Shown here piece after piece: positions 4,885 to 40,794 of a stretch of DNA of 41,928 nt; position 1 is the first letter of the stretch, and every line of letters begins with the position of its first letter. A program made the translations under genes and the position numbers. The stretch is from Gemmatimonadota bacterium. Its GTDB lineage: Bacteria; Gemmatimonadota; Gemmatimonadetes; Gemmatimonadales; GWC2-71-9. The notes under the pieces are model-generated. The model saw nothing but the letters and a program-made list of their open reading frames with translations. It ran no database searches and was not told the DNA's origin. The DNA lies in contig JBMOPM010000173.1 of assembly GCA_049323575.1 (NCBI GenBank), positions 9,111 through 51,038 of the forward strand. The letters run 5' to 3'.

Positions 4885-5018
4885 CCCGTGGCTTCGAGAT
4901 ATCGGCGAATGACCTGCGTCACGCTCGCTGAAATTCGGAACGTGCGCGTCGGCTCAAGCGTCAAGGAGCCGCTCGGCTGCCGATCGCGTTGCGGTTGGGC
5001 TACGGAAGGGGAAATCCA

Positions 5019-5091
5019 TGGAGCCGAGGGGGCTCGAACCCCTGACCCCCTGCTTGCAAAGCAGGTGCTCTCCCAGCTGAGCTACGGCCCC
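5019..5091 (-). tRNA. tRNA-Ala (anticodon UGC)
   Basis: The reverse complement reads GGGGCCGTAGCTCAGCTGGGAGAGCACCTGCTTTGCAAGCAGGGGGTCAGGGGTTCGAGCCCCCTCGGCTCCA. It has a 7-bp acceptor stem with the G3:U70 alanine identity pair, anticodon loop CTTTGCAAG wait-free reading TTTGCAA with TGC at positions 34-36, and a GGTTCGA T-loop. CCA is not encoded. Confidence 0.95.
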
Positions 5092-6657: not shown

Positions 6658-7344
6658 ATGCGTGACGGGTTGCTCTTCGACTTCGGCGGCACCCTGGATG
6701 CCGATGGCGTCCCGTGGGCGGATCGCTTCTTCGCGGTCTATCGTCGGGCCGGGGGCCGTCTGGATCGGACGGCATTTACCGCGGCATTTCGCGCTTCCGA
6801 CGAGCGCCTGGCGGAGACGCCCGGCATCCGGCAGTGCGGCTTTGCCGCCATGATCGAGCGGCAGGCCGCCATCCTCCAGGACCTGTTGCCCGACGGTTAC
6901 CTCGTCCCCCAGCACGGGATGGCCGAGCGGTTCGTCACCGATGCCCGGCTGATGGCAGCGCGCAACCGGCCCGTCCTGGCCGCGCTGGCCGCGCGGCATC
7001 GCCTCGGCATCGTGTCGAACTTCACCGGCAACCTGGTCCCCTGTCTCGTCGAGCTCGGGTTCATCGAGTTCTTCGACGTCGTGCAGGACTCTGCCGTCGT
7101 GGGCGTCGCGAAGCCGGCGCCGGCGATCTTCCTGGGCGCACTCGCCGCGCTCGACCTGCCTGCCTCCCGCTGCTGGATGGTGGGAGACAACCCGTCGGCG
7201 GACCTGGCGCCGGCGCAGGCGCTGGGACTGCGCACCTGCTGGCTCGCACCGGCCGGCCGGCCGGCGGGCGACTGCCGGCCCACAGCGCGCATCGCTCATC
7301 TCACCGACCTTCCCGAGGCACTGCAGTGGGCGCCGCTGGACTGA
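6658..7344 (+). CDS. HAD-superfamily (subfamily IA-like) hydrolase with atypical motif I
   Basis: 228 aa. Motif I reads LLFDFGGTLD, with Gly where the Asp+2 general acid normally sits. Motif II is IVSNF. Motif III/IV reads VAKPAPAIF...WMVGDNPSADL. Confidence 0.75.
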   Translation: MRDGLLFDFGGTLDADGVPWADRFFAVYRRAGGRLDRTAFTAAFRASDERLAETPGIRQCGFAAMIERQAAILQDLLPDGYLVPQHGMAERFVTDARLMAARNRPVLAALAARHRLGIVSNFTGNLVPCLVELGFIEFFDVVQDSAVVGVAKPAPAIFLGALAALDLPASRCWMVGDNPSADLAPAQALGLRTCWLAPAGRPAGDCRPTARIAHLTDLPEALQWAPLD

Positions 7345-8030
7345 TCCTGGCCGGCGGCGAAGGCTCTCGCCTCGCCGCCTCCGGCGTCGCCACGCCGAAG
7401 GCGGCCGTGCGGGTCGCCGGCCGTCCCCAGGCGGTGCGCCTGGCCGATGCGCTGCGCCGGGCCGGCTGCGATCCGATCGCGTGTGCCGTGCGCGACACCG
7501 TCGCCGGAACCCTTGCCGCCCTCCCCGATCTCGCCGAAGTACGCCTCGTCACCTGCCACACACCCACGTCGCTGCACACGCTGGCCGTGGGCCTCGAGGC
7601 GCTCCCGGCAGGTACCGTGATGTGCACCATGGTGGACTGCGTGATGCGCGACGCGGACTGGTTCGCCGCGCTCGACGCGCTGGCCGCGGGACTCTCGGAC
7701 GGCGCCAGTGCGGGCGTGGTCGTGACGCCGCTCATCGAGGACGAGCGCCCGCTCCACGTGGAGCTCGATCAGCATGGCCTCGTTCGCCGCTTCGGCGGCC
7801 CTTCCGCGCCGCGGCCGCTGGTCACGGCCGGCGTGTACGCCTTCGGTCCCGTCGCGCGGGCCGGCGTGCGCCCGGCGCTCGGCGCGGGCGTCCAGCGCAT
7901 GCGAGGGTACCTCGCGTGGCTCGTCGAGCAGGGCCACCGCATCGCCGCCGTCGAGGTGCACGAGGTGGTGGACCTCGACACCGCCCGGGATCTCGCGCGC
8001 GCCACCGCCTTGCTCGAGGCTGGCGTCTGA
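7326..8030 (+). CDS. Nucleotidyltransferase (NTP_transferase-fold; sugar/polyol-phosphate cytidylyl- or similar transferase)
   Basis: The second half of tracked ORF 6714..8030. The proposed GTG start at 7326 gives VGAAGLILAGGEGSRL....PK, the GxGxRL nucleotide-binding signature. The part of the ORF upstream of 7326 overlaps the HAD gene out of frame. The start is uncertain. Confidence 0.65.
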   Translation: MGAAGLILAGGEGSRLAASGVATPKAAVRVAGRPQAVRLADALRRAGCDPIACAVRDTVAGTLAALPDLAEVRLVTCHTPTSLHTLAVGLEALPAGTVMCTMVDCVMRDADWFAALDALAAGLSDGASAGVVVTPLIEDERPLHVELDQHGLVRRFGGPSAPRPLVTAGVYAFGPVARAGVRPALGAGVQRMRGYLAWLVEQGHRIAAVEVHEVVDLDTARDLARATALLEAGV

Positions 8031-8860
8031 TGCCCCGCCTGGTCGCGATCTACCGGAGTCCGACGTACTCCCCGGCACAGCATGCCTGCAACGACACCGA
8101 GATCATGAATGAGACGGTGCGGCGCCTGATACGACGAGGCTGGCAGGCCACCCGCATCGGCGAGGCGGACGTCGAGGCCGGCCGGATCCCCGCCGCCGAT
8201 CTCTACCTCACCATGTGTCAGGGCGCGGCGGCCGCGGAGCGCTTGCTGCCGCTCGAGGTCTCCGGCGCGCTGGTGATCAACCGGCCGTCCAGCATCCTGA
8301 ACTGCCACCGTCACCGGCTGGTGCCGGCCCTGGCGGACACCGGCATCCCGTTCCCTCGCACGCTCATCGTGCCGACAGCGGCCGAAAGCGCGATCGCGGG
8401 GCTGGCGTTCGATCGTCCGCTCTGGCTCAAGCGGGGAGATGTGCATGCCGAGCGCGCCGACGATGTCGTGATGCTGAGCAACGGCGGCCTCGAATCCGCG
8501 CTTCGCGCGTTCGCGGCGCGGGGCATCGCGCGCGCGGCACTCCAGGAGCACGTGGACGGCCCGGTGGTCAAGTTCTACGGCGTAGCCGATGGCTCGCTGT
8601 TCCACGCCTTCCTGCCCGACGGCCGCGATACCCTGGGCGCCGACGTGGTGGACCTCGCGGCCCTCCGCGACCTCGCCTTCTCCGCCGCACGGCAACTGGG
8701 ACTCGACGTCTTCGGCGGCGATGCCGCCGTGCCGGCGCCCGACCGCCCGGTGCTCATCGATCTCAACGACTGGCCCAGCTTCGCGCCGATCCGCCTGCGG
8801 GCGGCGGACGCGATCAGTGCCTACGTCGACATCACCTATCGTTGCGGGAGACCTGCGTGA
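8030..8860 (+). CDS. ATP-grasp-fold protein (ligase or kinase; specificity unknown)
   Basis: The ATG at 8030 shares its A with the upstream TGA (TGATG). 276 aa. Architecture by eye is a pre-ATP-grasp N-domain, then IPFPRT...PLWLKRGDVH...QEHVDGPVVKFYGV...VLIDLNDWPSF, matching the ATP-grasp central and C-terminal strand pattern. The assignment is by pattern only. Confidence 0.5.
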   Translation: MPRLVAIYRSPTYSPAQHACNDTEIMNETVRRLIRRGWQATRIGEADVEAGRIPAADLYLTMCQGAAAAERLLPLEVSGALVINRPSSILNCHRHRLVPALADTGIPFPRTLIVPTAAESAIAGLAFDRPLWLKRGDVHAERADDVVMLSNGGLESALRAFAARGIARAALQEHVDGPVVKFYGVADGSLFHAFLPDGRDTLGADVVDLAALRDLAFSAARQLGLDVFGGDAAVPAPDRPVLIDLNDWPSFAPIRLRAADAISAYVDITYRCGRPA

Positions 8861-10197
8861 CCACCGTCAGTCCTGTGCAGCGCACGCTGCCCGGCCCCCG
8901 GTCGCTGGCCACCTTCGCCGAGGAGGCGGAGTTCCTGGCGCCTGGCACCCAGAGCGTAGCCCTCTTCAGCCGGTTGTGCATGGACCGGGGCGAAGGCGCC
9001 ATCCTCTACGACATCGATGGCAACCGCTATATCGACCTGCTGGCCGGCGTCTGCGTCGCGAGCCTGGGGTACGGCCACCCCCGTTACGTGGCCGCGCTGC
9101 AGCAGCAGGTGGCCCGGCTCCACGTGGGCAGCTTCACGACGGCGCACCGGGCCGAGCTGGTACGGCTCATCGCCAGCATCACACCGGGCGACCTGAACCG
9201 CACCCAGTTCTACTCCAGCGGCGCCGAGGCGGTAGAGGCCGCGCTGCGACTGGCGAAGTCGTTCACGAAGAAGACCGAGATCGTGGGCTTCTGGGGCGGC
9301 TATCACGGCAAGACCGGCGGCGGCGTGCTGCCGCTGCTGGGCGGCACCTTCAAGCACGCGCTCGGGCCGCTCATGCCCGGCGAGTACCTGAGCCCCTTCG
9401 CCAGTTGCGCCCGTTGCGCCTTCGATCAGTCGTTCCCGTCGTGCGAGTGGCACTGCGTCGAGTTCCTCAAGCGGAAGATCGAGCTGGAGACGACCAACAA
9501 CGTCGCCGCCATCATCGTGGAGCCGATCCAGGGCACCGCGGGCAACGTCGTACCGCCGCCAGGCTACCTGCGCGTCCTGCGCCAGGTGGCCGACGACCTC
9601 GGCGCGCTCCTCATCTGCGACGAGATGATCACCGGCTTCGGGCGCACCGGGCGCATGTTCGGGGTGGAGCACGACGGCGTGGTGCCGGACATCATGACCG
9701 TGGGCAAGGCCTTCGGCGGCGGCTTCCCCATGAGCGGCGTGATCGCGAGCGAGCGGGTGGCGTTCGCCCAGCCCTGGGCCAACCCGAGCGGCAGCTCGTC
9801 CAGCTACGGGGGCAACCCGCTCGCGGCGGCGGCCGCGCTGGCGGCCATCCGGATCACGATCGACGAGGATCTCCCGGCCCGCGCCCATCGCGTGGGCGAG
9901 ACGATGCTCGCTGAAATGCGGCGCTGGGAGCGCGAGATCCCCATCGTGCGCGATGTGCGCGGCCGCGGGCTGATGATCGGCATGGACCTGGTCAAGCCCG
10001 GCACCCGGCAGCTGCTGGACAAGGCGACGACCCGCTGGATCTTCGACACCCTGCTCTCGCGGGGCGTGCTCGCGATGATCTACCACCCGGAGGTACGGAT
10101 CAATCCGCCGCTCGTCATCAGCGAAGCGGAGGCCCTGGAAGCGCTGTCGATCATGGAGGGAGTGCTGCGTGACGCCTGCGACCGGCTCATTTCATAA
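8857..10197 (+). CDS. Class-III (omega) PLP-dependent aminotransferase
   Basis: The GTG at 8857 overlaps the upstream stop (GTGA) and follows GGGAG. Motifs are LLAGVCVASLGYGHP, GGYHGKT, ICDEMITGFGRTGRMFGVEHDGVVPDIMTVGKAFGGGFPMSG (catalytic Lys in TVGK) and the terminal INPPLVIS. Confidence 0.85.
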   Translation: MTTVSPVQRTLPGPRSLATFAEEAEFLAPGTQSVALFSRLCMDRGEGAILYDIDGNRYIDLLAGVCVASLGYGHPRYVAALQQQVARLHVGSFTTAHRAELVRLIASITPGDLNRTQFYSSGAEAVEAALRLAKSFTKKTEIVGFWGGYHGKTGGGVLPLLGGTFKHALGPLMPGEYLSPFASCARCAFDQSFPSCEWHCVEFLKRKIELETTNNVAAIIVEPIQGTAGNVVPPPGYLRVLRQVADDLGALLICDEMITGFGRTGRMFGVEHDGVVPDIMTVGKAFGGGFPMSGVIASERVAFAQPWANPSGSSSSYGGNPLAAAAALAAIRITIDEDLPARAHRVGETMLAEMRRWEREIPIVRDVRGRGLMIGMDLVKPGTRQLLDKATTRWIFDTLLSRGVLAMIYHPEVRINPPLVISEAEALEALSIMEGVLRDACDRLIS

Positions 10198-11065
10198 GGG
10201 CGACGTCGTCGAGGAGTGGATCGATCTCCACTTCTACCGGCCACTGGGCCTCCGTGTGGCCCGAGCGCTCCGGCCGACGCCGCTCAGCGCCGATCACGTC
10301 ACCATCCTGGCCGTCGCGATCGGCCTCGTGGCCGGCCGGCTCTGCTTCTACGACTCCTGGCGGCTCAATCTGCTCGGCTTCGGCCTGTTCGTGGTGTCCG
10401 ACATCTTCGACAGCGCGGACGGCCAGTTGGCCCGCATGCGCGGCACCTCCACCCGCTTCGGCCGAGTGCTCGACGGCGCGGGTGACTCGATCCGGTTCGT
10501 GAATCTGTTTCTCCAGCTCGCGCTCCGTGTGACCGCGGGCGGCGGTCGCTGGACCGTGTGGGTGCTCGCCGCGGCCGCCGGGTGGACCGCGTCGATCCAG
10601 GCGAATGCCATCGATTTCATGCGGCAGGCCTGGTCGTGGCTCACCGGAGGCGGCGCCGGCGAGCTCGACTTGCCGGAGGATGTCGACCGGCTGCCGGCAC
10701 GTACCGCGCTCGAACGCCTGCAGCGCGCGACCTATCGCGACTACGTGAACCGTCAGGTCCGTCTGCTGCCCCATACGGCCGAGCTGGTGCGCCGCATGCG
10801 TTCCGGCAACGCGCCGCCCGATATGGCCCGGTGGTGGGCCGAACGCCAGGAGCGCACCATCCGCCGCTGCGCCTGGGTGGGCCAGAACCTCCGGATCTTC
10901 CTGGTGGCGCTGACGGTCGTCCCGGGCTGGGTGACCGGGTACTTCTGGGTGCAGCTCATCCCGATGAACCTCATCCTGATCGCGCTCGTCCGCGACCACG
11001 AGCGCACTGCCGCCGAGTGTGCCCGCCCGCTGGGCGAACCGCTGTCGGTGGCGGGAGTGGCCTGA
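10169..11065 (+). CDS. CDP-alcohol phosphatidyltransferase-family membrane enzyme
   Basis: Contains the family signature D-x2-DG-x2-AR-x8-G-x3-D-x3-D as DSADGQLARMRGTSTRFGRVLDGAGDSIRF. Multiple TM segments and a ~120-aa C-terminal extension. The GTG start at 10169 (29-nt overlap with the upstream gene) is uncertain. Confidence 0.8.
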   Translation: MTPATGSFHKGDVVEEWIDLHFYRPLGLRVARALRPTPLSADHVTILAVAIGLVAGRLCFYDSWRLNLLGFGLFVVSDIFDSADGQLARMRGTSTRFGRVLDGAGDSIRFVNLFLQLALRVTAGGGRWTVWVLAAAAGWTASIQANAIDFMRQAWSWLTGGGAGELDLPEDVDRLPARTALERLQRATYRDYVNRQVRLLPHTAELVRRMRSGNAPPDMARWWAERQERTIRRCAWVGQNLRIFLVALTVVPGWVTGYFWVQLIPMNLILIALVRDHERTAAECARPLGEPLSVAGVA

Positions 11066-11066
11066 C

Positions 11067-12071
11067 ATGCCACCGCGCCGGGGCGTCATCGTCGGCGCCG
11101 GCGGCATCGCGCGCCGTTCGCACCTGCCCGCCTATCGCTCGGGCGATGGGGTCGCGCATCGGCTCCGCATCGTCGCCGCCATCGATCCTGCGGCGCGAAC
11201 CGGTGACCTCGACGGCATTCCGATCGTCGCCAGCCCGCGCGACCTTGCGTCGTTCGACCCGATCGACTTCGTGGACATCTGCACGCCCACGGCATCGCAC
11301 TACGAGCTGACGCTGTCGGCGCTCGAGGCCGGGCGCCACGTGCTCTGCGAGAAGCCGGTGGCCGTCACCCGGGCCGAGGCCGCCCGGCTCACCGCGACCG
11401 CCCGGGCCTCGGGGCGCGTGCTCATGCCCTGCCACCAGTACCGCAACAATCCGGCGTGGCAGCAGCTCCGGACCTGGCTCGAGGCGGGCGCGATCGGCCG
11501 GTGGCATCTGGCCGAGTTTCACGTCTTCCGCACCGAGGCCGACCGCGGCGCGCATACCATGGGCGTACCCTGGCGCGGACGCCAGGCCGAGAGCCGGGGC
11601 GGCGTGATGCTCGACCACGGGACGCATCTGTTCTATCAGCTGGTCGACGTGGCTGGCATGCCCAGGAGCGTACAGGCCCATACCGCGCGTCTCGGGCACG
11701 CCGGCTACGACGTGGAGGACACCGCGCACGTCGTGCTCGATTTCGGTGATCGGCTCGGCGTGCTGTTCCTCACGTCGGCCGCGCGCGAGCGGGACACCCG
11801 GATCCGCTTCATCGGCGAAGACGGTGCGATCGAATGGATCGGCGGCCGGCTCGAGCGCCGCGGGCGACACGGCACCGAATCGATCGACTTCTCGGCCGAG
11901 CTGGACAAGGCGGCCTACTACCGGTGGTTCGCAGCGCTGTTCCATCGGTTTGCCGATGCGATGGACACGGGCGACGCCGAAGCCGGGCTCGAGGACATCA
12001 TGCGCGTGGCCACACTGCTCGAGACGGCCTACGCCTCCGCGGGCGAGGGCTGCCGCGTGCCGGTGGCATGA
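11067..12071 (+). CDS. Gfo/Idh/MocA-family NAD(P)-dependent oxidoreductase
   Basis: The ATG at 11067 lies one nt after the upstream stop and follows GGGAG. Rossmann N-terminus RRGVIVGAGGIARRSHLPAY and the conserved CEKPVA motif. 334 aa. Confidence 0.8.
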   Translation: MPPRRGVIVGAGGIARRSHLPAYRSGDGVAHRLRIVAAIDPAARTGDLDGIPIVASPRDLASFDPIDFVDICTPTASHYELTLSALEAGRHVLCEKPVAVTRAEAARLTATARASGRVLMPCHQYRNNPAWQQLRTWLEAGAIGRWHLAEFHVFRTEADRGAHTMGVPWRGRQAESRGGVMLDHGTHLFYQLVDVAGMPRSVQAHTARLGHAGYDVEDTAHVVLDFGDRLGVLFLTSAARERDTRIRFIGEDGAIEWIGGRLERRGRHGTESIDFSAELDKAAYYRWFAALFHRFADAMDTGDAEAGLEDIMRVATLLETAYASAGEGCRVPVA

Positions 12072-13081
12072 GCGCGCGCATCCGGCTGTTCGGGTTCCTG
12101 ATCGGGACGGCGCTGACGGCCGCCATCATCATTCAGAGTGGTCCCGCTCGCCTGCTCGCCAGCATCCGCGCGGCAGGCTGGGTCGTCCTGCCGCTCGTGG
12201 CCCTCTGGGGTGTGGTCTACCTGTGCAACGCGCGCGCCTGGCAGCTCCTCACTCGAGGCGGTGGATCGTCGCTGCCGTTCGGCCGCGCCTGGCTGATCAC
12301 CGTCGTTGCCTTCGCCATCAACTACGGCACCCCGTTCGTGGGACTGGGCGGGGAGCCGATCAAGATCGCGGCGGCCGCGCCGTGGCTGGGCCCGGACCGC
12401 GCCGCGGGCACGGCCGTGGGCTACCGGCTGCTCCACGCGCTCTCCCAGGTCCTGGTGTTCATCGCAACGCTGGTGCCCGCGGCCATCCTGCTGCCGCACA
12501 CCTGGGCGATGGCCGCAGGCATCGGCGTGACCGCCGTGTGCCTCGCCGCCATCGCCTGGTTCCTCCTGGCGCGCCACCGCGCTGGCCTGCTCGAGGCCGG
12601 GGTCGACGGACTCCTGCGTTTGCCCTTTACTCGCCGCTTCCGCAACCACCTCGAACGCTGGCAACCGCGACTGCGCGAGCTGGATCACGAAATCACGGCC
12701 ATTCACCGCGAGGATCCGGCCCGCTTCCGGCACGCGCTCGGGATCGAGACCGCCGGCCGCGTCCTGTCCACGCTCGAGTTCGCGGTCATCCTGGTGGGTC
12801 TCGGTCGGCCGGGCAACGTGTGGCAGGCACTCGTGATCGCGAACTTCTCCTCGCTCGTGATCAACCTGCTGTTCTTCCTGCCGTTCGAGCTTGGCGCGAA
12901 GGAAGGCGGCGTCTACGTGATGTTCCAGTGGCTGGGGCTCGACCCCGCGCTGGGCGCGGCGGCGGCGCTCCTGAGCCGCGTCCGCGAACTGGTGTGGATG
13001 GGGCTGGGGATCGCTGGCTTGCTGCTGCTCAGGAGACGGGCACCGGGCCAAGGGCCGGATGCGGAATGCCGTATCCGGTGA
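12068..13081 (+). CDS. Flippase-like / lysylphosphatidylglycerol-synthase-TM-region-like integral membrane protein
   Basis: The ATG at 12068 overlaps the upstream stop (ATGA). 337 aa, about 8 TM segments. The N-terminus MSARIRLFGFLIGTALTAAIII and the GLGGEPIK motif are typical of the UPF0104/LPG_synthase_TM family. Confidence 0.65.
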   Translation: MSARIRLFGFLIGTALTAAIIIQSGPARLLASIRAAGWVVLPLVALWGVVYLCNARAWQLLTRGGGSSLPFGRAWLITVVAFAINYGTPFVGLGGEPIKIAAAAPWLGPDRAAGTAVGYRLLHALSQVLVFIATLVPAAILLPHTWAMAAGIGVTAVCLAAIAWFLLARHRAGLLEAGVDGLLRLPFTRRFRNHLERWQPRLRELDHEITAIHREDPARFRHALGIETAGRVLSTLEFAVILVGLGRPGNVWQALVIANFSSLVINLLFFLPFELGAKEGGVYVMFQWLGLDPALGAAAALLSRVRELVWMGLGIAGLLLLRRRAPGQGPDAECRIR

Positions 13082-13086
13082 CCCGC

Positions 13087-14022
13087 CTAATCCTCGCCGT
13101 CCAGCCAATCCCGCGGTCGCAGCATCGCCATCAGCTCCTGCTCGAACGAGCCCGGCTCGAAGACCGGGTCGTAGTCCCACATCGCCACGGGCGGCAGGCT
13201 CATCAGCACGCTCTCGATCCGCGCATTGGTCTGGAGGCCGAAGAGCGTGCCGCGATCATGCACGAGGTTGAACTCGACATAGCGGCCGCGGCGCAGCAAC
13301 TGGAGACGGCGCTCGCGCTCGCCCCAGGCCGCGTCGCGGCGGCGCTCCACGATGGGCCCGTAGGCGTCCGGGAGCACGCGTCCCACGTCCCGCACGAAGG
13401 CGAAGAGCTGCTCGGCATCCAGCGCGGTCTCCCTGCCGGGCCTGAGGTTGTCGAAGAAGATCCCGCCGATGCCGCGTGCCTCGTGGCCGCGGTGGGCATT
13501 GACGAAGTACTGATCGCACCACGCCTTGAACCGGGGATAGAAGGCCCGGTCGTGGGCATCGCAGAGGTTCCGCAGCACGCGGTGAAAGTGCACGGCGTCA
13601 TCGGGGAACGGATAGTACGGCGTGAGGTCGGTGCCGCCCCCGAACCAGCGATCGAGCACGATACCGTCGGGCGCCGCGATCTCGAAGCAGCGGACGTTGA
13701 GATGGACTGTGGGCACCATGGGACTCCGGGGATGGAGCACGACCGATACGCCCGTCGCATGGAAGCGGAGGCCCGCGCTGACCGGCACCACCGCGCCGAG
13801 CCGCCGGGCGTGGTGGGCGTCGATGGCCCCCTCCACCGCCGAGCGGTTGACGCCCGCCTTTTCGAAGGTAGCGCCCTCGGTGAGCACCCGCGTCACACCG
13901 CCACCGCCGCCCGGCCGCTGCCAGCAATCCTCGCGGAAGCGCTTCCCGCGATCCAGCCGCTCGACGAACGTGGTGATTTCGTCGTGCAGGTCGGACATGA
14001 ACGCTTCCACCCGCTCACGCAT
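13087..14022 (-). CDS. hemF: Oxygen-dependent coproporphyrinogen III oxidase
   Basis: The ATG at 14022 gives MRERVEAFM. Diagnostic stretches are WQRPGGGGGVTRVL, FEKAGVN, LHPRSPMVPTVHLNVR, WFGGGTDLTPYYP and ARGIGGIFFDNL. Confidence 0.9.
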   Translation of the reverse strand: MRERVEAFMSDLHDEITTFVERLDRGKRFREDCWQRPGGGGGVTRVLTEGATFEKAGVNRSAVEGAIDAHHARRLGAVVPVSAGLRFHATGVSVVLHPRSPMVPTVHLNVRCFEIAAPDGIVLDRWFGGGTDLTPYYPFPDDAVHFHRVLRNLCDAHDRAFYPRFKAWCDQYFVNAHRGHEARGIGGIFFDNLRPGRETALDAEQLFAFVRDVGRVLPDAYGPIVERRRDAAWGERERRLQLLRRGRYVEFNLVHDRGTLFGLQTNARIESVLMSLPPVAMWDYDPVFEPGSFEQELMAMLRPRDWLDGED

Positions 14023-15067: not shown

Positions 15068-15112
15068 TCGAGCACGGAAAGAGGGTACGGCACGGAGGAG
15101 CGACGCGTGCCC

Positions 15113-15835: not shown

Positions 15836-15844
15836 GCGCCGCCC

Positions 15845-20500: not shown

Positions 20501-20573
20501 GGAAACGCCTGACTGCGGTCTGGGTGATCAGGTGGGCGTGAGGATCAGCTGGACATCGACGGCAAGAAGCTGT

Positions 20574-25214: not shown

Positions 25215-25283
25215 CAGGATCTCCTCTCGCGACTCGCCCGCGCTCGAGACGCAACGCTCACCGACCGCACACCGGCACAACGG

Positions 25284-27139: not shown

Positions 27140-27179
27140 GCCTGGCTGTGTTCCATGTGGCTCGTCTGCGCCCGGGGGC

Positions 27180-27518: not shown

Positions 27519-27522
27519 CGGC

Positions 27523-28014: not shown

Positions 28015-28033
28015 GGATTGCTCCCTGCTGAGA

Positions 28034-30930: not shown

Positions 30931-30995
30931 CGCTAGGTTAAGCTCTTCTGTCATATGGCGATGAGCGTATCTGGACGCCGCCCGGACACCTAGCG
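30931..30995. repeat. 8-bp inverted repeat flanking an AT-richer segment upstream of the spt-like gene
   Basis: CGCTAGGT (30931-30938) pairs with ACCTAGCG (30988-30995) across a 49-nt spacer. CGCATCG occurs next to both arms. The second arm ends 13 nt before the GTG start at 31008. Confidence 0.3.
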
Positions 30996-31007
30996 CATCG
31001 AGGGCAC

Positions 31008-32213
31008 GTGGACACCCAGACCCTGCAACAGGTCGCACTCTTCGAGAAGTGCCGCCAGTTCACCAAGGCGCGTGAGGTTCAGGCCGCTGGGCTGTACCCC
31101 TATTTCAAGCCGATCTCCGAGTCCGAGGACACGGTCGTCGTCATCGAGGGGAAGAAGCGGATCATGCTGGGGTCGAACAATTACCTCGGCCTGACCCATC
31201 ACCCCAAGGTGCTCGAGGCCGCGGGCCGTGCCCTGCATCGCTACGGCTCGGGATGCACCGGCAGCCGGTTCCTGAACGGCTCGCTCGACCTGCACGAACA
31301 GCTCGAACACGCCCTCGCGACCTTCCTCGGCAAGGAAGACGTCATCGTCTTCTCCACCGGGTATTCCGCCAACCTGGGTCTCATTTCCGGCCTGCTGGGC
31401 CGCGGGGAGACGGTCTACCTCGACAAGCTGGACCACGCCTGCATCGTCGACGGCGCCAAGCTCTCCTTCGGCGAGACGGTCCGCTTCAATCACGGCGACT
31501 ACGCCCAGCTCGAGCGCATGCTGGAGCGCAACCGCACCGGCCGCGGCACCATGGTCGTGGTGGACGGCGTGTACTCCATGGAGGGCGACATCGCCGACAT
31601 CCCGGCGCTCGCGCGCATCTGCCGCAAGTACGGCACCGCCCTCGTGGTGGACGACGCGCATGCCCTCGGCGTGATCGGGCCCAAGGGCGACGGCACGGGC
31701 GCCCACTTCGGCATGCAGGACGACGTCGACATCATCGCCGGCACCTTCTCCAAGTCCCTGGCGTCCATCGGCGGCTTCGTGGCCGCGAGCGAGAGCGTGA
31801 CCCACTACCTGCGCCATCACAGCCGGCCGTTCATCTTCACGGCCGCGCTGCCACCGGCCAACACCGCGGGCGTCCTCGCCGCGCTGGAGCTGGTCCGCAC
31901 GGAGCCGGAGCGCCGCGACCGGCTCTGGGCGAACGCCCGGCGCCTGCAGGAAGGCTTCCGCTCGCTGGGCTTCGACATCGGGTCCACGCAGACGCCGATC
32001 GTGCCCGTACTCATCGGCCCGCTGGAGAAGACGTTCCTGATGTGGCGCAAGCTGTTCGACGCCGGCGTCTTCACCAACCCCGTGGCGCCACCCGCCGTGC
32101 CGCCCTCGCAGTGCCGGCTCCGCACCAGCGTCATGGCCACGCACACGTTCGACCAGATCGACTTCTGCCTCGAGGCGTTCGCCCGGATCGGGCGCGAGCT
32201 GGGGGTCATCTGA
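31008..32213 (+). CDS. spt: Alpha-oxoamine synthase, serine palmitoyltransferase-like
   Basis: 401 aa, GTG start. GLYPYFKPI...IMLGSNNYLGLTHHP...YGSGCTGSRFLNGS...VFSTGYSANLG...DDAHALG...FSKSLASIGGF (PLP Lys). The GSRFLNG and YPYF features resemble bacterial SPT more than BioF or KBL, judged from memory. Confidence 0.75.
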   Translation: MDTQTLQQVALFEKCRQFTKAREVQAAGLYPYFKPISESEDTVVVIEGKKRIMLGSNNYLGLTHHPKVLEAAGRALHRYGSGCTGSRFLNGSLDLHEQLEHALATFLGKEDVIVFSTGYSANLGLISGLLGRGETVYLDKLDHACIVDGAKLSFGETVRFNHGDYAQLERMLERNRTGRGTMVVVDGVYSMEGDIADIPALARICRKYGTALVVDDAHALGVIGPKGDGTGAHFGMQDDVDIIAGTFSKSLASIGGFVAASESVTHYLRHHSRPFIFTAALPPANTAGVLAALELVRTEPERRDRLWANARRLQEGFRSLGFDIGSTQTPIVPVLIGPLEKTFLMWRKLFDAGVFTNPVAPPAVPPSQCRLRTSVMATHTFDQIDFCLEAFARIGRELGVI

Positions 32214-33346
32214 GCGGACCGGTCACGGTCCGCCAGGTCGCGAGCGGTCGAGACCTCCGGCGCTTCATCGACTTCCCATACAGACTCCACGCGCGGGACC
32301 CGCTCTGGGTCCCGCCGTTGCGTCAGGACGTGGCGTTCCTGCTGGACCGCGCCCGGAACCCGTTCTTCGAGCACGGCGAGGCCGAGTACTTCCTGGCCGA
32401 ACGGAACGGCGCGGTGGTGGGTCGCATCGCCGCGATCATCAACCGGCTGCACAACGAGACCCACCACGACAAGGTGGGCTTCTTCGGCTTCTTCGAGTCG
32501 ATCGACGATCAGGCCGTGGCCTCCGCTCTGCTCGACCAGGCCGCGGCGTGGCTCAAGGCCCGGGGCTTCGACACCATCCGCGGCCCCGCCTCCTTCTCGG
32601 TCAACGACGAGTGCGGCCTGCTGGTAGACGGCTTCGACACGCCGCCCACGGTCATGATGCCGCACAACCCGCGCTATTACGTAAGCCTCATCGAGCGCGC
32701 GGGCTTCAGCAGCGCCAGGAACCTGCTGGTCTACGAGGGCGGCACGCCGGAGCGCTTCACCCCCGTTCCCGAACGGCTGGCACGCGGGACCGAGCTGATC
32801 CGCCAGCGGCAGGGCATCACCCTGCGGCCGCTCGAGCTGGGGCGGCTGGACGCCGAGATCGAGACGATCAAGGAGATCTACAACGAGGCGTGGGAAGCCA
32901 ACTGGGGCTTCGTCCCCATGACCGACAAGGAGATCGACCACCTGGCCAGGGCCTTCCGGCCGATCGTGGTCCCCGAGCTCGTGCCCTTCGCCGAGAAGGA
33001 CGGCAAGGCCATCGCCTTCGGGATCGCGATTCCCGACATCAATGTGGTGCTCCGGAAGAACCGCAACGGCCGCCTGCTGCCGGCCGCGCTCGAGCTGCTC
33101 TGGAAGATCCGGACGCGTCGCATCACCCGTTGCCGCATCCTGCTCCTCGGCATCCGGCCCGAGTGGCGCAACCGCGGCGTGGACGCGATGCTGTATCACT
33201 GGATCTGGACCCGGGGCGGCGAGCTGGGTTACCGCTGGGGCGAGGCCGGCTGGATCCTCGAGGACAACGTGGCGATGAACGCCGCGCTCGAGAAGATGAC
33301 CTTCCGCGTCTACAAGACCTATCGCCTCTACGACCGGCCGCTATGA
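32210..33346 (+). CDS. GNAT-fold acyltransferase-like protein (candidate bacterial ceramide synthase by context)
   Basis: Conserved-looking N-terminus VRQVASGRDLRRFIDFPYRLHARDPLWVPPL, then GRIAAIIN...FGFFE...RGPASFSVNDECGLLVDGFDTPP..MMPHNPRYY. There is no ATG/GTG/TTG between 32111 and 32318 in this frame. I placed the start provisionally at the CTG at 32210, inside the CTGA overlap with the spt stop. Confidence 0.6.
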   Translation: MSGPVTVRQVASGRDLRRFIDFPYRLHARDPLWVPPLRQDVAFLLDRARNPFFEHGEAEYFLAERNGAVVGRIAAIINRLHNETHHDKVGFFGFFESIDDQAVASALLDQAAAWLKARGFDTIRGPASFSVNDECGLLVDGFDTPPTVMMPHNPRYYVSLIERAGFSSARNLLVYEGGTPERFTPVPERLARGTELIRQRQGITLRPLELGRLDAEIETIKEIYNEAWEANWGFVPMTDKEIDHLARAFRPIVVPELVPFAEKDGKAIAFGIAIPDINVVLRKNRNGRLLPAALELLWKIRTRRITRCRILLLGIRPEWRNRGVDAMLYHWIWTRGGELGYRWGEAGWILEDNVAMNAALEKMTFRVYKTYRLYDRPL

Positions 33347-34317
33347 GGGCGCTGGTGACCGGGGCCACCGGCTTCGTGGGTGGCCATCTCGTCCGGCGGC
33401 TCCACGCGACCGGCCATGAAATCACCGCCCTGGTTCGTTCACCCACCAGGGCGGCGGCGCTCGCACCGTTCGGCGTCCGGCTGGTGCGGGGCGACCTGGC
33501 CGATGCCGCCGCGCTCCGCGAAGCAGTCACCGGGCAGGATGTAGTGTTCCACGTGGCGGGCGTCGTGGCCGCGCCGAACGAGGCCGAGTTCCTGCGCATC
33601 AACCGCGAGGGGACCGCGGCAGTGCTCGACGCGGCCGCCCGCGCGGGTGCACCGCGGTTTGTCCTCGTCTCCTCGATGGCGGCCGCCGGCCCGAGCCCGA
33701 GAGGCAGACCGCGCGCGGCGTCGATGCCGATGGAGCCCCTCACCGCCTACGGCCGCAGCAAGCGCGCCGCCGAGGAGCTGGTGCGGTCGAGCCATCTGGC
33801 CTGGACGATCATCCGCCCGCCGATGGTCTATGGCCCCGGCGATCGCGAGGTGTTCAAGATCTTCCAGCTCGCCGCGCGGGCCCTCGGTCTCGTGCCGGTC
33901 TTCGGTGACGGCTCGCAGGAGCTGTCCGCCGTCTACGGCCCCGACCTGGCTGCCGCGCTCGTCGCCGCGGCCGAGAGCGAGGCGACGGTGGGCGGGACCT
34001 ACTATGCCTGTCACCCGGAGATCTTCACCTCGGGCGAGTTCGCGGCGCATGTAGCGCGCGCCGTCGGGCGGCATCCGCGCCTCATCCCCATCCCGAGGCC
34101 CATCGGACGAGCAGTACTCGCGCTCACCGGGCTTGCCGCCGCGCTGGCCGACACGGCCACCGTACTCAACGCGGACAAGGCCCATGAGTTCTTCGCTCCG
34201 GCCTGGACCGGCGACCCGGCCCCGCTGGAGCAGGCCACCGGCTGGCGCGCGGCCACCGGCATCGCCGAAGGCATCCCGGCCACCGCGCGCTGGTATCGGG
34301 AGCAGGGTTGGCTCTGA
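33343..34317 (+). CDS. NAD(P)-dependent epimerase/dehydratase-fold (extended SDR) reductase
   Basis: The ATG at 33343 overlaps the upstream stop (ATGA). MRALVTGATGFVGGHLV Rossmann motif and Y-x3-K as YGRSK. 324 aa. Confidence 0.8.
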   Translation: MRALVTGATGFVGGHLVRRLHATGHEITALVRSPTRAAALAPFGVRLVRGDLADAAALREAVTGQDVVFHVAGVVAAPNEAEFLRINREGTAAVLDAAARAGAPRFVLVSSMAAAGPSPRGRPRAASMPMEPLTAYGRSKRAAEELVRSSHLAWTIIRPPMVYGPGDREVFKIFQLAARALGLVPVFGDGSQELSAVYGPDLAAALVAAAESEATVGGTYYACHPEIFTSGEFAAHVARAVGRHPRLIPIPRPIGRAVLALTGLAAALADTATVLNADKAHEFFAPAWTGDPAPLEQATGWRAATGIAEGIPATARWYREQGWL

Positions 34318-35195
34318 CCGCGACATCGGGGACGCTCCGCCGGCTGCGCCTGTTCCCGCTCGACGTCCTGCTGCTGGCCTATCTGGCCCTCACGACTGCC
34401 GTGGCGGTGTCGCGCTGGTCGCTGTACCCGGACATGATCTGGGTGCTGGTGTCCAACGCACTCGCTGCCCTGCTCATCCTGCTGGTGCGGATGGCGCAGG
34501 CCCGCGGCAGCTCCGGCGCGTGGCTCGATGCCTACCCGCTCGCGCTCTTGATTCCGCTCTACGGCGCGATCGGCTTCCTCAACGGCAGCGGCGCGGCTCC
34601 CACGCACGATCTCACGATCCAGGCATGGGAGCAGGCCCTGTTCGGCGGGCAGCCTGCCCGCGACTGGTGGCGTGCCTATCCCAGCACGTTCTGGTCGCCC
34701 ATCCTCCACGCGGCCTATCTCGGCTACTACCTCATTCTCGTGGTGCCGACCGTCGTGTTTGCGGCGCGGGGTGACATCGCCTCGCTGCGCCGGTCGATGC
34801 TGTTCGTCATGGCGACGTTCGTGCCGTGCTACCTGGCCTTCATCTTCTTCCCCGTCGCCGGCCCGTACTACTCCTTCCCCCGGCCCGCCGGCCCGGTCGT
34901 CGACAACTGGCCGGCTCGTCTCCTGTACGCGGGCCTGCCGTCGGGCAGCGCGTTCGGGGCGGCGTTTCCCTCCTCGCACGTGGCGGCGTCGGTGGCGTCG
35001 ACGGCGGGCGCATGGCTGAGCTCGCGCCGGCTCGGAATCGTTCTGGCCATCCCGACCGTACTGCTGGTGGTGAGCGTGGTGTATTGTCAGATGCACTACG
35101 CGATCGACGCCCTCGCCGGGCTGGCGGTGGCGACGGTCGTGATCACCGTCGCATCCCGACATCTCGCGCGACGGAGCATCCAGCCGGCCCCATGA
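34308..35195 (+). CDS. PAP2-superfamily membrane enzyme (PAP2_3 / inositol-phosphorylceramide-synthase-like)
   Basis: The TTG at 34308 follows GGGAG. About 6 TM segments. The PAP2 C2/C3 motifs read FPSSHVAAS and QMHYAIDALAG, a form I recall from lipid phosphotransferases of the AUR1/SMS type rather than soluble phosphatases. Confidence 0.7.
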   Translation: MALTATSGTLRRLRLFPLDVLLLAYLALTTAVAVSRWSLYPDMIWVLVSNALAALLILLVRMAQARGSSGAWLDAYPLALLIPLYGAIGFLNGSGAAPTHDLTIQAWEQALFGGQPARDWWRAYPSTFWSPILHAAYLGYYLILVVPTVVFAARGDIASLRRSMLFVMATFVPCYLAFIFFPVAGPYYSFPRPAGPVVDNWPARLLYAGLPSGSAFGAAFPSSHVAASVASTAGAWLSSRRLGIVLAIPTVLLVVSVVYCQMHYAIDALAGLAVATVVITVASRHLARRSIQPAP

Positions 35196-40791: not shown

Positions 40792-40794
40792 GGC

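Follow-up and report, generated by a model that had tools for sequence, protein, structure and literature searches.

What would be assembled by an operon that combines a nucleotidyltransferase and a CDP-alcohol transferase with an aminotransferase, a dehydrogenase and an ATP-grasp protein? The question is raised by seven genes on the forward strand (6658-13081) of a 41,928-nucleotide stretch of DNA from a soil-type Gemmatimonadota bacterium, here called the window. A preliminary description, made from the sequence alone, had proposed a pathway for the polar head group of a lipid or solute. Here, we argue that the operon is probably an extended version of the bacterial inositol-phosphate lipid pathway, in which two extra enzymes would aminate inositol.

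A conserved seven-gene operon

The seven genes are tightly packed, overlapping or lying 1 nt apart (Table 1). A GTG start at 7326 falls inside the end of the HAD gene, whose stop codon occupies 7342-7344, and the following junctions are TGATG (8028-8032), GTGA (8857-8860), a GTG start at 10169 ahead of the aminotransferase stop at 10195-10197, TGA-C-ATG with its 1-nt gap at 11066, and ATGA (12068-12071). The GC content at the third codon position is 0.85-0.98 only in the seven proposed frames, and the frame changes at every junction. The same genes have been called identically by others on three further contigs with an identical ATP-grasp protein, where the lengths are 228, 234, 276, 445/446, 298, 334, and 337 aa. 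The coupled operon, with the overlaps first described, is thus borne out by the sequence, the codon-position GC, and independent gene calls. A profile-HMM check of the family assignments agreed for the six genes in which Pfam families were found, and gene 3 is assigned to the ATP-grasp proteins by its fold.

Table 1. Features of the seven-gene operon and of a second, probably linked operon in the window.
Feature	Coordinates	Strand	Remarks
Gene 1, HAD-superfamily hydrolase	6658..7344	+	228 aa; Pfam Hydrolase/HAD_2
Gene 2, small nucleotidyltransferase	7326..8030	+	234 aa; GTG start; Pfam NTP_transf_3
Gene 3, ATP-grasp protein, unannotated family	8030..8860	+	276 aa; predicted fold
Gene 4, class-III (omega-type) PLP aminotransferase	8857..10197	+	446 aa; GTG start; Pfam Aminotran_3
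Gene 5, CDP-alcohol phosphotransferase, membrane protein	10169..11065	+	298 aa; Pfam CDP-OH_P_transf
Gene 6, Gfo/Idh/MocA NAD(P) oxidoreductase	11067..12071	+	334 aa; Pfam GFO_IDH_MocA + C-terminal domain
Gene 7, LPG_synthase_TM/HpnL-like flippase-like membrane protein	12068..13081	+	337 aa; Pfam LPG_synthase_TM
Second operon, four genes, ceramide-type backbone + phospho-head-group transferase	30942..35195	+	probably linked; Pfam
SPT-like alpha-oxoamine synthase	to 32213	+	best NCBIfam serine palmitoyltransferase, 516 bits (cutoff 640)
GNAT acyltransferase	about 32210-33346	+	Pfam
NDUFA9/epimerase-type reductase	33343-34317	+	Pfam
PAP2_3 head-group transferase-like protein	34308-35195	+	Pfam

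The seven genes are conserved together in unchanged order in about 40 Gemmatimonadota loci whose flanks are unrelated, which places the arrangement far beyond chance, and the block is also found in a different gene arrangement in Ignavibacteria, Verrucomicrobiota, myxobacteria-like and Elusimicrobia genomes. The core of the block consists of the nucleotidyltransferase, the ATP-grasp protein, the CDP-alcohol transferase, and the HAD protein, with or without the flippase-like membrane protein. The idea that the genes form a single conserved operon, which builds a polar head group by a CDP-alcohol logic, is therefore supported.

The aminotransferase and dehydrogenase as an add-on

Of the loci compared, 51 carry genes 4 and 6 together and nine carry neither, the sole apparent exception being one locus with a frameshifted aminotransferase. 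They are a strict add-on to the core and behave as one functional pair, in support of the dehydrogenase-aminotransferase partnership initially suggested. The aminotransferase matches Aminotran_3 with an E-value of 1e-93 in Pfam, retains the PLP lysine (in TVGK), stays under all NCBIfam cutoffs, and has GabT and putrescine aminotransferase as its nearest structures; its sequence is 70-79% identical inside the phylum and 50-56% between phyla. The dehydrogenase carries an EKP motif and has generic PDB neighbours, together with a weak full-length match to the inositol 2-dehydrogenase IolG (65.8 bits, NCBIfam cutoff 355). Gene 6 is predicted to convert a ring hydroxyl into a ketone, which gene 4 would then aminate. 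Class-III aminotransferases, however, mostly work on terminal amines and aldehydes, and the inosose aminotransferases known so far are DegT-family enzymes. The family of gene 4 and the weak IolG likeness of gene 6 count against the pathway proposed below.

The ATP-grasp protein: kinase or ligase

Gene 3 matched no Pfam family. Its AlphaFold (AF2) model (pLDDT 89.9) shows an ATP-grasp fold, with Foldseek E-values of about 1e-13 to Ddl, RimK, ArgX, and ITPK1, and its family comprises 916 clusters at 50% identity. The profile matches PsnB, ITPK4, RimK, and ITPK1, but the ligases PsnB and RimK score level with the ITPKs, and fold and profile searches do not separate a kinase from a ligase. More is learned from the genomic context. 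The gene is kept in clusters without the aminotransferase and the dehydrogenase, and its homologues occur as NTP::ATP-grasp, HAD::NTP::ATP-grasp, and ATP-grasp::HAD fusions, the link to gene 2 homologues recurring in many proteins. All 67 clusters with the add-on have Q at residue 64, and all 14 without it have R (120/120 each for Q and R in wider hit sets). Clusters of the two types are interspersed in the tree. The switch would represent perhaps two to four independent evolutionary events rather than 81 independent observations. On the basis of its retention without the add-on, its fusions, and the Q/R switch, gene 3 is predicted to be a cyclitol or cyclitol-phosphate kinase rather than an amide ligase. 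The Campylobacter-style amidoligase tied to the amine, as envisaged in the preliminary description, is not the best reading given that retention and those fusions.

An unlikely variant of the same lipid pathway would have the ATP-grasp enzyme act as a ligase that couples a carboxylic acid, either an amino acid or an organic acid, to the head group; the bond would be an amide with the new amine or, in clusters lacking the aminotransferase, an ester with a hydroxyl. The HAD protein would then take off a phosphate, much as in the serinol-phosphate system of Campylobacter. ATP-grasp enzymes form esters and amides alike (VanA, microviridin ligases), and the best PDB sequence match of the family profile is PsnB, an ester/amide-forming RiPP ligase (4e-8), followed by RimK (3e-5); the top Foldseek matches are Ddl, DcsG, RimK, and ArgX, and a change of nucleophile from OH to NH2 would also be consistent with the Q/R switch. 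However, the protein is a fixed core member even where the amine-forming genes are absent, and its recurrent fusion to the nucleotidyltransferase is the usual pattern of kinase-plus-pyrophosphorylase pairs. Neither the glycine-rich loop nor the RimK-type R-x-N-x3-GG segment is aligned in the gene 3 family, whose C-terminal DxN-W-PSF motif resembles an ITPK motif. Core-bearing bacteria, moreover, have been reported with plain inositol phosphoceramide and no extra acyl mass (PMC9246714).

Activation and transfer of the head group

The nucleotidyltransferase carries the GxGxRL motif (as GEGSRL...PK), and its Bacteroides orthologue has its best match in the IPCT half of IPCT/DIPPS (39 bits). We predict from these sequence features that gene 2 makes a CDP-activated cyclitol. 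At residue 196, all 54 proteins from clusters with the add-on have L, and 12/14 of the others have Q; both L196 and T167 co-vary with the presence of genes 4 and 6. In the same comparison, no residue switch tracking the add-on was found in the HAD and flippase-like proteins. This pattern fits an amination that precedes the kinase and activation steps.

The catalytic motif of the CDP-alcohol transferase, D-x2-DG-x2-AR-x8-G-x3-D-x3-D, is complete (residues 81-106, nt 10409-10486). Its NCBIfam scores, all under the cutoffs, are headed by the archaetidylinositol-phosphate (AIP, 45.7 bits), PIP (40.7) and DIPP (26.7, cutoff 580) synthases, with PssA (24) and PgsA (21.6) scoring poorly, and its best PDB match is AF2299. 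The membrane protein encoded by gene 7 has no synthase domain and occurs in both cluster variants; it passes the TIGR00374 (flippase-like domain) cutoff (46.2 against 43.2) and stays below that of TIGR03476 HpnL (89.9 against 195.65). In the HAD protein, the nucleophile Asp8 is present in a motif I (DFGGTLD) where Gly replaces the Asp+2 general acid, D-x-G-G-T being conserved at 90% or more across 73 orthologous sequences, and no NCBIfam equivalog was matched at its cutoff. Lacking the canonical general acid expected of an alkyl-phosphate phosphatase, gene 1 can be called a typical phosphatase, as first proposed, only with uncertainty.

Links to inositol and to lipids

The inositol-phosphate synthase MIPS is encoded adjacent to the cluster in 18 related loci. 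It lies directly 3' of it in 14 Ignavibacteria/Bacteroidetes loci, covering both variants, 5' of it in locus L088, and 5 kb downstream in four Gemmatimonadota loci; it was not found within the window. Some Gemmatimonadota relatives also have a PIPS-like gene beside MIPS (135-146 bits). This adjacency and the nearness of the transferase to inositol-type synthases support the suspected inositol connection.

The phospholipid-transport genes MlaE, MlaF, and MlaD sit between the nucleotidyltransferase and ATP-grasp genes in nine Ignavibacteria loci, and about 24/84 loci, from four or more phyla, have ceramide-type genes bordering the cluster. An SPT-GNAT-reductase-PAP2_3 set is found directly beside the seven genes in at least ten Gemmatimonadota loci, and SPT and GNAT also in Verrucomicrobiota and others. 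In the window, the second operon, with genes joined by ATGA and TTG overlaps, lies 18 kb from the cluster. Because of the MlaEFD genes inside the cluster and the adjoining ceramide-synthesis genes, the sequence evidence favours a lipid over a solute, the two options left by the preliminary description.

It is very improbable that an activated aminocyclitol phosphate is placed instead on a non-lipid or lipid-A/glycan surface acceptor, or secreted as a rhizopine- or aminoglycoside-like metabolite. A MocA-family dehydrogenase with an aminotransferase does follow the rhizopine/aminocyclitol logic, but the only partners of gene 5-type CDP-alcohol phosphotransferases known to us are lipids or inositol phosphate. 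Even though the Bacteroides capsule contains inositol (PMC9246714), the genes accompanying the cluster are lipid genes, and no glycosyltransferase, polymerase, or resistance genes were found in the neighbourhoods of related loci. Very improbable, too, is a soluble phosphodiester, namely an aminated analogue of di-myo-inositol phosphate (DIP) or glycerophosphoinositol made in an IPCT/DIPPS-like manner, with the HAD protein removing a terminal phosphate and the membrane protein exporting the solute. A nucleotidyltransferase, a CDP-alcohol transferase, and a phosphatase are exactly the logic of DIP, and gene 5 is similar to DIPPS and AF2299; however, DIPPS is its weakest inositol-type match, MlaEFD and, in many phyla, ceramide-synthesis and PAP2_3 genes lie inside or beside the cluster, and the hosts are mesophilic bacteria of soil and gut, while DIP is a solute of thermophiles. 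The Bacteroidetes core cluster is, furthermore, tied to inositol sphingolipids (PMC9246714).

Comparison with known systems

The earlier statement that the gene set matches no characterized pathway needs qualifying, since four or five of the seven genes match the Bacteroides (Phocaeicola) vulgatus/Prevotella cluster (PMC9246714) and the Rhodothermus IPCT/BEPIS pair (PMC4587543). In the former, an NTP transferase, a CDP-alcohol phosphatidyltransferase, and a HAD protein are encoded beside MIPS, with a lysyl-PG-synthase-like membrane protein close by (PMC9246714). This "putative alternative inositol-lipid cluster" has a proposed, not proven, role (Heaver 2022, PMC9246714); B. vulgatus and P. veroralis, which have the core cluster type, make inositol phosphoceramide without BT-type genes (PMC9246714). 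The ATP-grasp gene is not mentioned there, and yet the order in Bacteroides, Parabacteroides-like, Muribaculaceae and Prevotellaceae loci is NTP, ATP-grasp, CDP-OH, (LPG_TM), HAD, (MIPS), the proteins being homologous to window genes 2, 3, 5, 7, and 1, at low cross-phylum identities of 21-38%. Unlike the window, this cluster has neither the aminotransferase nor the Gfo/Idh/MocA dehydrogenase, and MIPS is not adjacent in the window.

The MIPS-IPCT-BEPIS route of Rhodothermus marinus, as summarized in PMC4587543 (Jorge, Borges & Santos 2015), is the sole case in which the donor chemistry proposed here has been shown by experiment. There, CDP-inositol, formed from inositol phosphate by a cytidylyltransferase, is proven to donate a lipid head group, and a membrane enzyme of the CDP-alcohol family transfers its phosphoinositol to a lipid alcohol; genes 2 and 5 would be the counterparts of IPCT and BEPIS. 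That summary reports no ATP-grasp, HAD, aminotransferase, dehydrogenase, or flippase-like genes. The ceramide phosphoglycerate set of Caulobacter crescentus places nucleotidyltransferase-like, CDP-alcohol-type, and phosphoesterase genes beside spt, bcerS, and cerR, but it starts with a ceramide kinase, builds a phosphoglycerate head group, and involves no inositol, ATP-grasp, aminotransferase, or Gfo protein (PMC11324152).

The mycobacterial/Bacteroides thetaiotaomicron PIP-synthase route (MIPS, PIPS, PIP phosphatase) shares the inositol-phosphate source of the head group, a phosphatase step, and a PAP2-family enzyme (the AUR1-like BT_1522) that transfers phosphoinositol to ceramide. It differs in needing no soluble nucleotidyltransferase, gene 5 staying under the PIPS cutoff (40.7 against 170 bits) and leaving the BT_1523-type model unmatched. 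In streptidine biosynthesis, a phosphatase, a Gfo/Idh/MocA dehydrogenase, an aminotransferase, and a kinase yield phosphorylated scyllo-inosamine. The early streptidine/hygromycin steps thus follow the same chemical sequence, from inositol phosphate to phosphorylated inosamine, but with DegT/StsC-type aminotransferases, a non-ATP-grasp kinase, and antibiotics as products. The serinol/ethanolamine amidation of the Campylobacter jejuni HS:2 capsule brings together the same three superfamilies (transaminase, ATP-grasp amidoligase, HAD phosphatase). Here, however, the ATP-grasp and HAD proteins persist without the aminotransferase, coupled to a nucleotidyltransferase and a CDP-alcohol transferase, and the cluster contains no uronic-acid or capsule genes.

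A proposed pathway

We consider it fairly probable that the operon makes an inositol-derived, aminated phospho head group and installs it on a membrane lipid by a CDP-alcohol (Kennedy-type) route, the predicted product being an aminocyclitol-phosphate (sphingo)lipid. The HAD protein would dephosphorylate the myo-inositol phosphate supplied by a MIPS encoded elsewhere in the genome, the dehydrogenase would oxidise one ring hydroxyl to give an inosose, and the aminotransferase would convert it into an inosamine. This cyclitol would then be phosphorylated by the ATP-grasp protein and turned into a CDP-cyclitol by the nucleotidyltransferase, whereupon the CDP-alcohol transferase would pass the phospho-cyclitol to diacylglycerol or ceramide, and the LPG_synthase_TM-like protein would carry the lipid over the inner membrane. 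Removing a phosphate only to restore it looks wasteful unless the phosphate changes position. Alternatively, the ATP-grasp enzyme may put a second phosphate on (amino)inositol phosphate, and the HAD protein may take the leftover phosphate off the lipid last, as in the PIP-synthase route. The second operon probably provides the ceramide, onto which its PAP2_3 protein may shift the head group, as AUR1 and BT_1522 do with phosphoinositol. We know of no lipid with an inosamine head group; if the proposal is true, this amino-sugar-like, inositol-derived head group would define a kind of lipid that has yet to be described. A plain inositol lipid would, in turn, be made by clusters without genes 4 and 6.

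Operon structure and gene families

The seven genes, joined by short overlaps or a single-nucleotide gap, form one operon as the preliminary description had it, since the junction strings are present in the sequence, the coding frames follow them, and independent gene calls agree. The window has a G+C content of 70%, and its closest homologues bear names that assign it to Gemmatimonadota. The third-position GC reaches 0.85-0.98 in seven plus-strand frames, and the frame shifts exactly at the junctions listed in the table below. An identical protein to that of gene 3 is found on three other assemblies, where the gene calls give the same seven products (228, 234, 276, 445/446, 298, 334 and 337 aa). 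A divergent gene for a DsbD_2-like membrane protein borders the block upstream. On the downstream side follows a convergent haem operon; only 5 nt part its first stop from the end of gene 7, with no terminator-like hairpin between the two. Scans with Rfam and for promoters and terminators were negative for regulatory elements, both inside the operon and ahead of it.

Features of the window and of related loci (L numbers; fetched sequences carrying the cluster)
Feature	Sequence	Position	Strand	Remarks
Seven-gene operon: HAD protein (gene 1), nucleotidyltransferase (NTP transferase, gene 2), ATP-grasp protein (3), class-III aminotransferase (4), CDP-alcohol transferase (CDP-OH, 5), Gfo/Idh/MocA oxidoreductase (6), LPG_synthase_TM protein (7)	window	6658-13081	+	
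Gene 2 start, GTG	window	7326	+	19 nt ahead of the HAD stop
Junction TGATG	window	8028-8032	+	
Junction GTGA	window	8857-8860	+	
Gene 5 start, GTG	window	10169	+	29 nt ahead of the aminotransferase stop
Junction TGA-C-ATG	window	around 11066	+	
Junction ATGA	window	12068-12071	+	
Haem operon: hemF, hemE, hemD, hemC, hemY-like oxidase, hemL, hemB	window	13087-20527	-	convergent with the seven-gene operon
SPT-like alpha-oxoamine synthase, GNAT acyltransferase, NDUFA9/epimerase-type reductase, PAP2_3	window	30942-35195	+	overlapping stops
AbiEii-type nucleotidyltransferase toxin	window	4273-4884	-	with small upstream ORF; region 4273-5091
tRNA gene	window	5019-5091	-	
TAT-signal molybdopterin oxidoreductase, SoxY, metallo-beta-lactamase-fold protein, M6 peptidase, NrfD with 4Fe-4S subunit	window	22537-28062 and 39448-41928	-	
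Third CDP-alcohol transferase (394 aa) and GNAT protein (427 aa)	L045	5265-7726	-	Verrucomicrobiae chromosome, one side
SPT-like and sphingolipid-desaturase-like (FA_desaturase + Lipid_DES) genes	L045	13093-15713	-	other side
Split aminotransferase	L057	10795-12179		three frames
Second, short CDP-alcohol transferase	L001-L003, L006	about 7950-8575		
Second, short CDP-alcohol transferase	L008-L010, L014-L017, L019, L020, L022, L026, L028, L030-L033, L042, L052			just after gene 7
Second, short CDP-alcohol transferase	L069, L073			
Mla genes embedded in the cluster	L041, L044, L047, L048, L050, L051, L069, L073, L078			

Pfam profiles confirmed six of the seven families that had been read from the sequence (HAD, NTP_transf_3, Aminotran_3 with an E-value of 1e-93, CDP-OH_P_transf, GFO_IDH_MocA with its C-terminal domains, and LPG_synthase_TM), with the expected catalytic motifs present in genes 2, 4, 5 and 6; gene 3 matched no Pfam family, ATP-grasp and RimK included. 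None of the seven genes reached an NCBIfam equivalog cutoff, and the only NCBIfam model scoring above its cutoff was the generic flippase-like domain TIGR00374, in gene 7. Among structural neighbours, gene 4 is GabT/putrescine-aminotransferase-like, and gene 6 is generic.

Gene 5 belongs to the CDP-alcohol phosphotransferase family (PF01066, E = 6.5e-10), with the motif D-x2-D-G-x2-A-R-x8-G-x3-D-x3-D at residues 81-106 and the hydrophobic segments of that family. Its best NCBIfam matches are the archaetidylinositol-phosphate synthase (45.7 bits) and PIP synthase (40.7 bits) models, yet both lie far below the respective cutoffs of 180 and 170, and its closest solved relative is AF2299. A housekeeping identity as PgsA or PssA, raised beforehand as a possible objection, was rejected on NCBIfam scores of 21.6 and 24.0 bits against cutoffs of 109.1 and 107. 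Other familiar identities were rejected as well. Genes 2 and 5 are not a bifunctional IPCT/DIPPS, being separate genes, of which gene 5 scores 26.7 bits against the cutoff of 580 and gene 2 gives no match; the best match of the Bacteroides orthologue of gene 2 is, at 39 bits, the IPCT half of that model. Gene 7 is not MprF, as it comprises the transmembrane domain only (337 aa) and lacks the C-terminal aminoacyl-PG synthase domain. A hopanoid (HpnL/HpnO-like) context was rejected too, since gene 7 resembles HpnL only weakly (TIGR03476, 89.9 bits against 195.65) and no hpn genes lie nearby. Gene 6 does not qualify as IolG, reaching 65.8 bits against 355 with TIGR04380, though it aligns over the full length.

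Conservation and the two-gene add-on module

A tblastn mapping of the seven window proteins to 84 fetched loci shows strong co-conservation of the operon: about 40 Gemmatimonadota loci, whose flanks differ considerably, have all seven genes in the order of the window, and the full set recurs rearranged elsewhere. In Ignavibacteria the order is NTP transferase, further on ATP-grasp, aminotransferase, CDP-OH, Gfo, LPG_TM and HAD, and in Verrucomicrobiota, myxobacteria-like "delta" lineages and Elusimicrobia a CDP-OH or LPG_TM gene precedes HAD, NTP transferase, ATP-grasp, aminotransferase and Gfo. A core form (NTP transferase, ATP-grasp, CDP-OH, in some cases LPG_TM, and HAD), which lacks the aminotransferase and the oxidoreductase, is found in Bacteroidales, Melioribacter and Ignavibacterium. 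Among the loci with enough flank, 51 have both genes 4 and 6 and nine have neither; the two thus make up a single add-on module. The one locus with Gfo only, from a long-read metagenome-assembled "delta proteobacterium", carries a frameshifted aminotransferase. An indel introduced during assembly is a likelier cause than true gene decay, a caution for presence/absence counts in long-read assemblies.

About 25 loci, the window not being one of them, carry with the cluster a second, short CDP-alcohol transferase (~207 aa), which is nearest to the AIP/PIP synthases (48-59 bits).

The ATP-grasp protein

The protein of gene 3 has the characteristics of the ATP-grasp superfamily, namely the three-domain fold, two conserved lysines and an acidic/acidic/Asn Mg site. 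A model built from 45 homologues (pLDDT 89.9) is clearly of this fold (Foldseek E of about 1e-13, TM 0.6-0.7), and K134, K181, D231, D244 and N246 are invariant or nearly so in the family. This family is a large one, with 1845 matches in a word-indexed search, at least 916 clusters at 50% identity (E <=1e-3) and relatives in at least 593 species genomes of those scanned, and its members are named by NCBI only as "hypothetical" or "ATP-grasp domain-containing protein". Some of them are natural fusions, of the types NTP::ATP-grasp (seven representatives), HAD::NTP::ATP-grasp (802 aa) and ATP-grasp::HAD; these proteins (P0211, 802 aa; P0216, 570 aa; P0121, P0143, P0159, P0229, P0235, P0245 and P0248) offer useful single-polypeptide targets for biochemistry.

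The family shows a residue switch that follows the form of the cluster. Residue 64, in the motif M-C-Q-G, is Q in 67 of 67 full-form clusters versus R in 14 of 14 core-form ones, and a neighbour-joining tree of FCB lineages shows the two forms intermixed. In wider match lists, Q is found in 120/120 Gemmatimonadota-type proteins and R in 120/120 Bacteroidales-type ones, and diverse representatives of the family have Q in 87 cases, R in 29 and E in 16. In the AlphaFold model, this residue belongs to the loop that follows strand 58-61 in the N-terminal domain, next to R9, S14, P15, N84 and R94, likewise invariant residues of loops, a site that we infer to be the substrate pocket. The nucleotidyltransferase switches similarly (L196 in 54 of 54 full-form sequences versus Q in 12 of 14 core-form ones, and T167 versus S), the transferase does so weakly (Y61/F), and the HAD and LPG_TM proteins show no switch. 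Such a switch in genes 3 and 2 would be expected if amination preceded the ATP-grasp and nucleotidyltransferase steps, and the absence of one in the HAD protein fits an enzyme whose substrate both forms share. The Q/R switch is a concrete, testable specificity determinant of the ATP-grasp enzyme. The E at residue 64, seen in 16 of 150 diverse members (P0121-P0270), may mark a third substrate class.

The pattern of these switches supports, without proving it, the reading of gene 3 as a cyclitol kinase, to which we would give about an even chance. The inositol-phosphate kinases ITPK4 and ITPK1 are matched by the family profile with E-values of 1e-6 and 8e-4, although over the C-terminal third only, where the family's "fGGD...liDlNdWPSF" aligns with the ITPK "fGfD...ivDlNylPSF", and of the fold matches, those to ITPK1 structures are the closest in sequence (20-21% identity). 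The rival reading, a ligase, we consider less likely. PsnB (4e-8) and RimK (3e-5) are matched by the same profile, and the fold and PDB profile scores are alike for both enzyme types. The FRSNLHRGG loop of RimK is a gap in the family alignment, and Pfam gave neither an ATP-grasp or RimK match nor one to the ITPK family (PF05770). The particular version put forward in the preliminary description, a Campylobacter-style amidoligase, is not supported as stated: as gene 3 is fixed in the core form, where there is no aminotransferase, and is fused to NTP transferase or HAD partners, its distribution indicates that it cannot merely decorate a newly made amine.

The HAD protein

Gene 1 is a member of the HAD superfamily and retains Asp8 as the nucleophile as well as motifs II-IV (SN, K, GD...D), but it does not have the canonical phosphatase motif I, since the general acid at Asp+2 is replaced by Gly, with a conserved Asp four residues beyond it. 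This motif I, D-x-G-G-T-x-D, is at least 90% conserved in 73 orthologues (from loci L001-L084). A Gly at this position is unusual for an alkyl-phosphate phosphatase, which leaves canonical phosphatase chemistry uncertain, and the earlier assignment to a typical HAD phosphatase is not supported as stated. The CDP-alcohol transferase of Prevotella veroralis is a fusion with its HAD protein (PMC9246714), which favours a late, membrane-proximal role for the latter. This fusion, together with the missing general acid, keeps open a sub-variant in which the ATP-grasp enzyme would phosphorylate the (amino)inositol phosphate and the HAD protein would take the extra phosphate off the lipid.

Relation to published inositol-lipid systems

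The nearest published system is the "alternate cluster" described by Heaver et al. in 2022 beside the inositol-phosphate synthase (MIPS) gene of B. vulgatus and Prevotella, which consists of an NTP transferase, a CDP-alcohol phosphatidyltransferase and a HAD hydrolase (PMC9246714). A lysyl-PG-synthase-like gene lies nearby, an ATP-grasp gene is not mentioned, and the authors suggested that PI and inositol phosphoceramide arise by way of CDP-inositol, a route that they themselves called unconfirmed (PMC9246714). Genes 2, 5 and 1 of the window are clustered in the same way, but not directly beside MIPS, and homologous clusters can be traced into Bacteroides, Prevotellaceae and Parabacteroides-like genomes. 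The locus tags given for that cluster, BVU_RS13095, 13105 and 13115, leave two unnamed slots, which fits the order NTP, ATP-grasp, CDP-OH, LPG_TM, HAD of a Bacteroides locus (L075), and we infer that the two are the same arrangement. The MIPS-IPCT-BEPIS operon of Rhodothermus marinus provides a proven precedent for the donor chemistry (Jorge 2015, as cited in PMC4587543). No characterised seven-gene set was found in the literature, nor any description of an inosamine lipid or of the function of this ATP-grasp family, and nothing closer than Heaver 2022; the Lipocone paper contained nothing relevant to this cluster.

No MIPS gene is present in the 42-kb window, but MIPS adjoins the cluster in 18 related loci. 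In 14 Ignavibacteria/Bacteroidetes loci, of both forms, it is the gene that directly follows HAD; in one Tannerellaceae locus it precedes the NTP transferase, and in four Gemmatimonadota loci it lies 5 kb downstream, there paired with a PIPS-like gene (135-146 bits). These positions, together with the IPCT match of the Bacteroides orthologue of gene 2, are evidence that the pathway works on inositol. Tannerella forsythia, a species with a BEPIS homologue, takes its inositol from outside only (PMC4587543); two protein searches for the ATP-grasp family aimed at this species matched only Dysgonomonadaceae and Parabacteroides relatives. Parabacteroides chinchillae and P. provencensis carry the ATP-grasp gene and are candidates for the core form.

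Lipid context

The ceramide-type operon of the window lies 18 kb from the seven genes. Its SPT-like product has the SPT model as best match, with 516 bits and below the cutoff of 640; for bCerS and CerR no dedicated model exists, and the GNAT and epimerase-family genes follow it with overlapping stops. Its last product belongs to PAP2_3, the family of the yeast inositol-phosphoceramide synthase AUR1. The operon looks like one for bacterial ceramide synthesis plus a phospho-head-group transferase, the bacterial ceramide pathway being composed of Spt, an acyltransferase (bCerS) and an NDUFA9-like reductase (CerR) (PMC11087976). In at least ten Gemmatimonadota loci, the same four genes follow the cluster immediately, in convergent orientation, and in three more they are nearby; SPT and GNAT genes flank it in Verrucomicrobiota and others, once with a sphingolipid desaturase. 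A Verrucomicrobiae chromosome (L045) has, in addition, a third CDP-alcohol transferase with a GNAT protein on one side, and the SPT-like and desaturase-like genes on the other.

In nine Ignavibacteria and Bacteroidetes loci, the genes for MlaE, MlaF and MlaD, of phospholipid ABC transport, are inserted between the NTP transferase and ATP-grasp genes, as candidates for a dedicated product transporter. These insertions and the ceramide-type neighbours are evidence for a membrane lipid as the putative product, rather than a solute. Candidates for sphingolipid transport, which according to the field has yet to be assigned to genes (PMC11087976), are the flippase-like gene and the Mla genes. Our literature search found no report of sphingolipids in Gemmatimonadota, and for Gemmatimonas polar lipids it gave nothing beyond Heaver 2022.

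A predicted aminocyclitol head group

The idea originally suggested, a CDP-alcohol route to an aminated polyol-phosphate lipid head group, is supported and can be sharpened, its amidoligase and typical phosphatase parts excepted. An inositol origin of the polyol is almost certain; for the lipid, a sphingolipid and/or glycerolipid of the outer membrane is probable. Taken as a whole, the proposal is that undescribed lipids with a phospho-aminocyclitol (inosamine phosphate) head group on ceramide and/or diacylglycerol are made in Gemmatimonadota, Ignavibacteria, Verrucomicrobiota, some myxobacteria-like lineages and Elusimicrobia, by means of an unrecognised family of ATP-grasp cyclitol kinases that would also supply the component so far lacking in the alternative pathway of Bacteroides/Prevotella. 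It is a tentative one, to which we give somewhat less than an even chance. The system is a variant of a known route, itself unproven, its most notable elements being the predicted aminocyclitol head group and the unrecognised ATP-grasp family.

Inositol lipids and sphingolipids of bacteria have effects on the function of the outer membrane, on antimicrobial-peptide resistance and on host signalling. Two bacterial routes to them have been proposed, and for one of these both genetic and biochemical proof is still wanting. The locus reveals a universally conserved, overlooked ATP-grasp component in this alternative route. With the widespread add-on module, the head group would change from an anionic inositol to a zwitterionic aminocyclitol; this would give abundant soil phyla a new means of tuning the membrane charge, functionally comparable to lysyl-PG or PE.

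Other genes of the window

The molybdopterin oxidoreductase, SoxY, metallo-beta-lactamase-fold protein, M6 peptidase and NrfD/4Fe-4S subunit genes appear to have no relation to the seven-gene operon. Upstream of the divergent neighbour of the operon, the tRNA gene stands beside the AbiEii-type toxin gene and its small upstream ORF, a region that may represent a small toxin-antitoxin islet.
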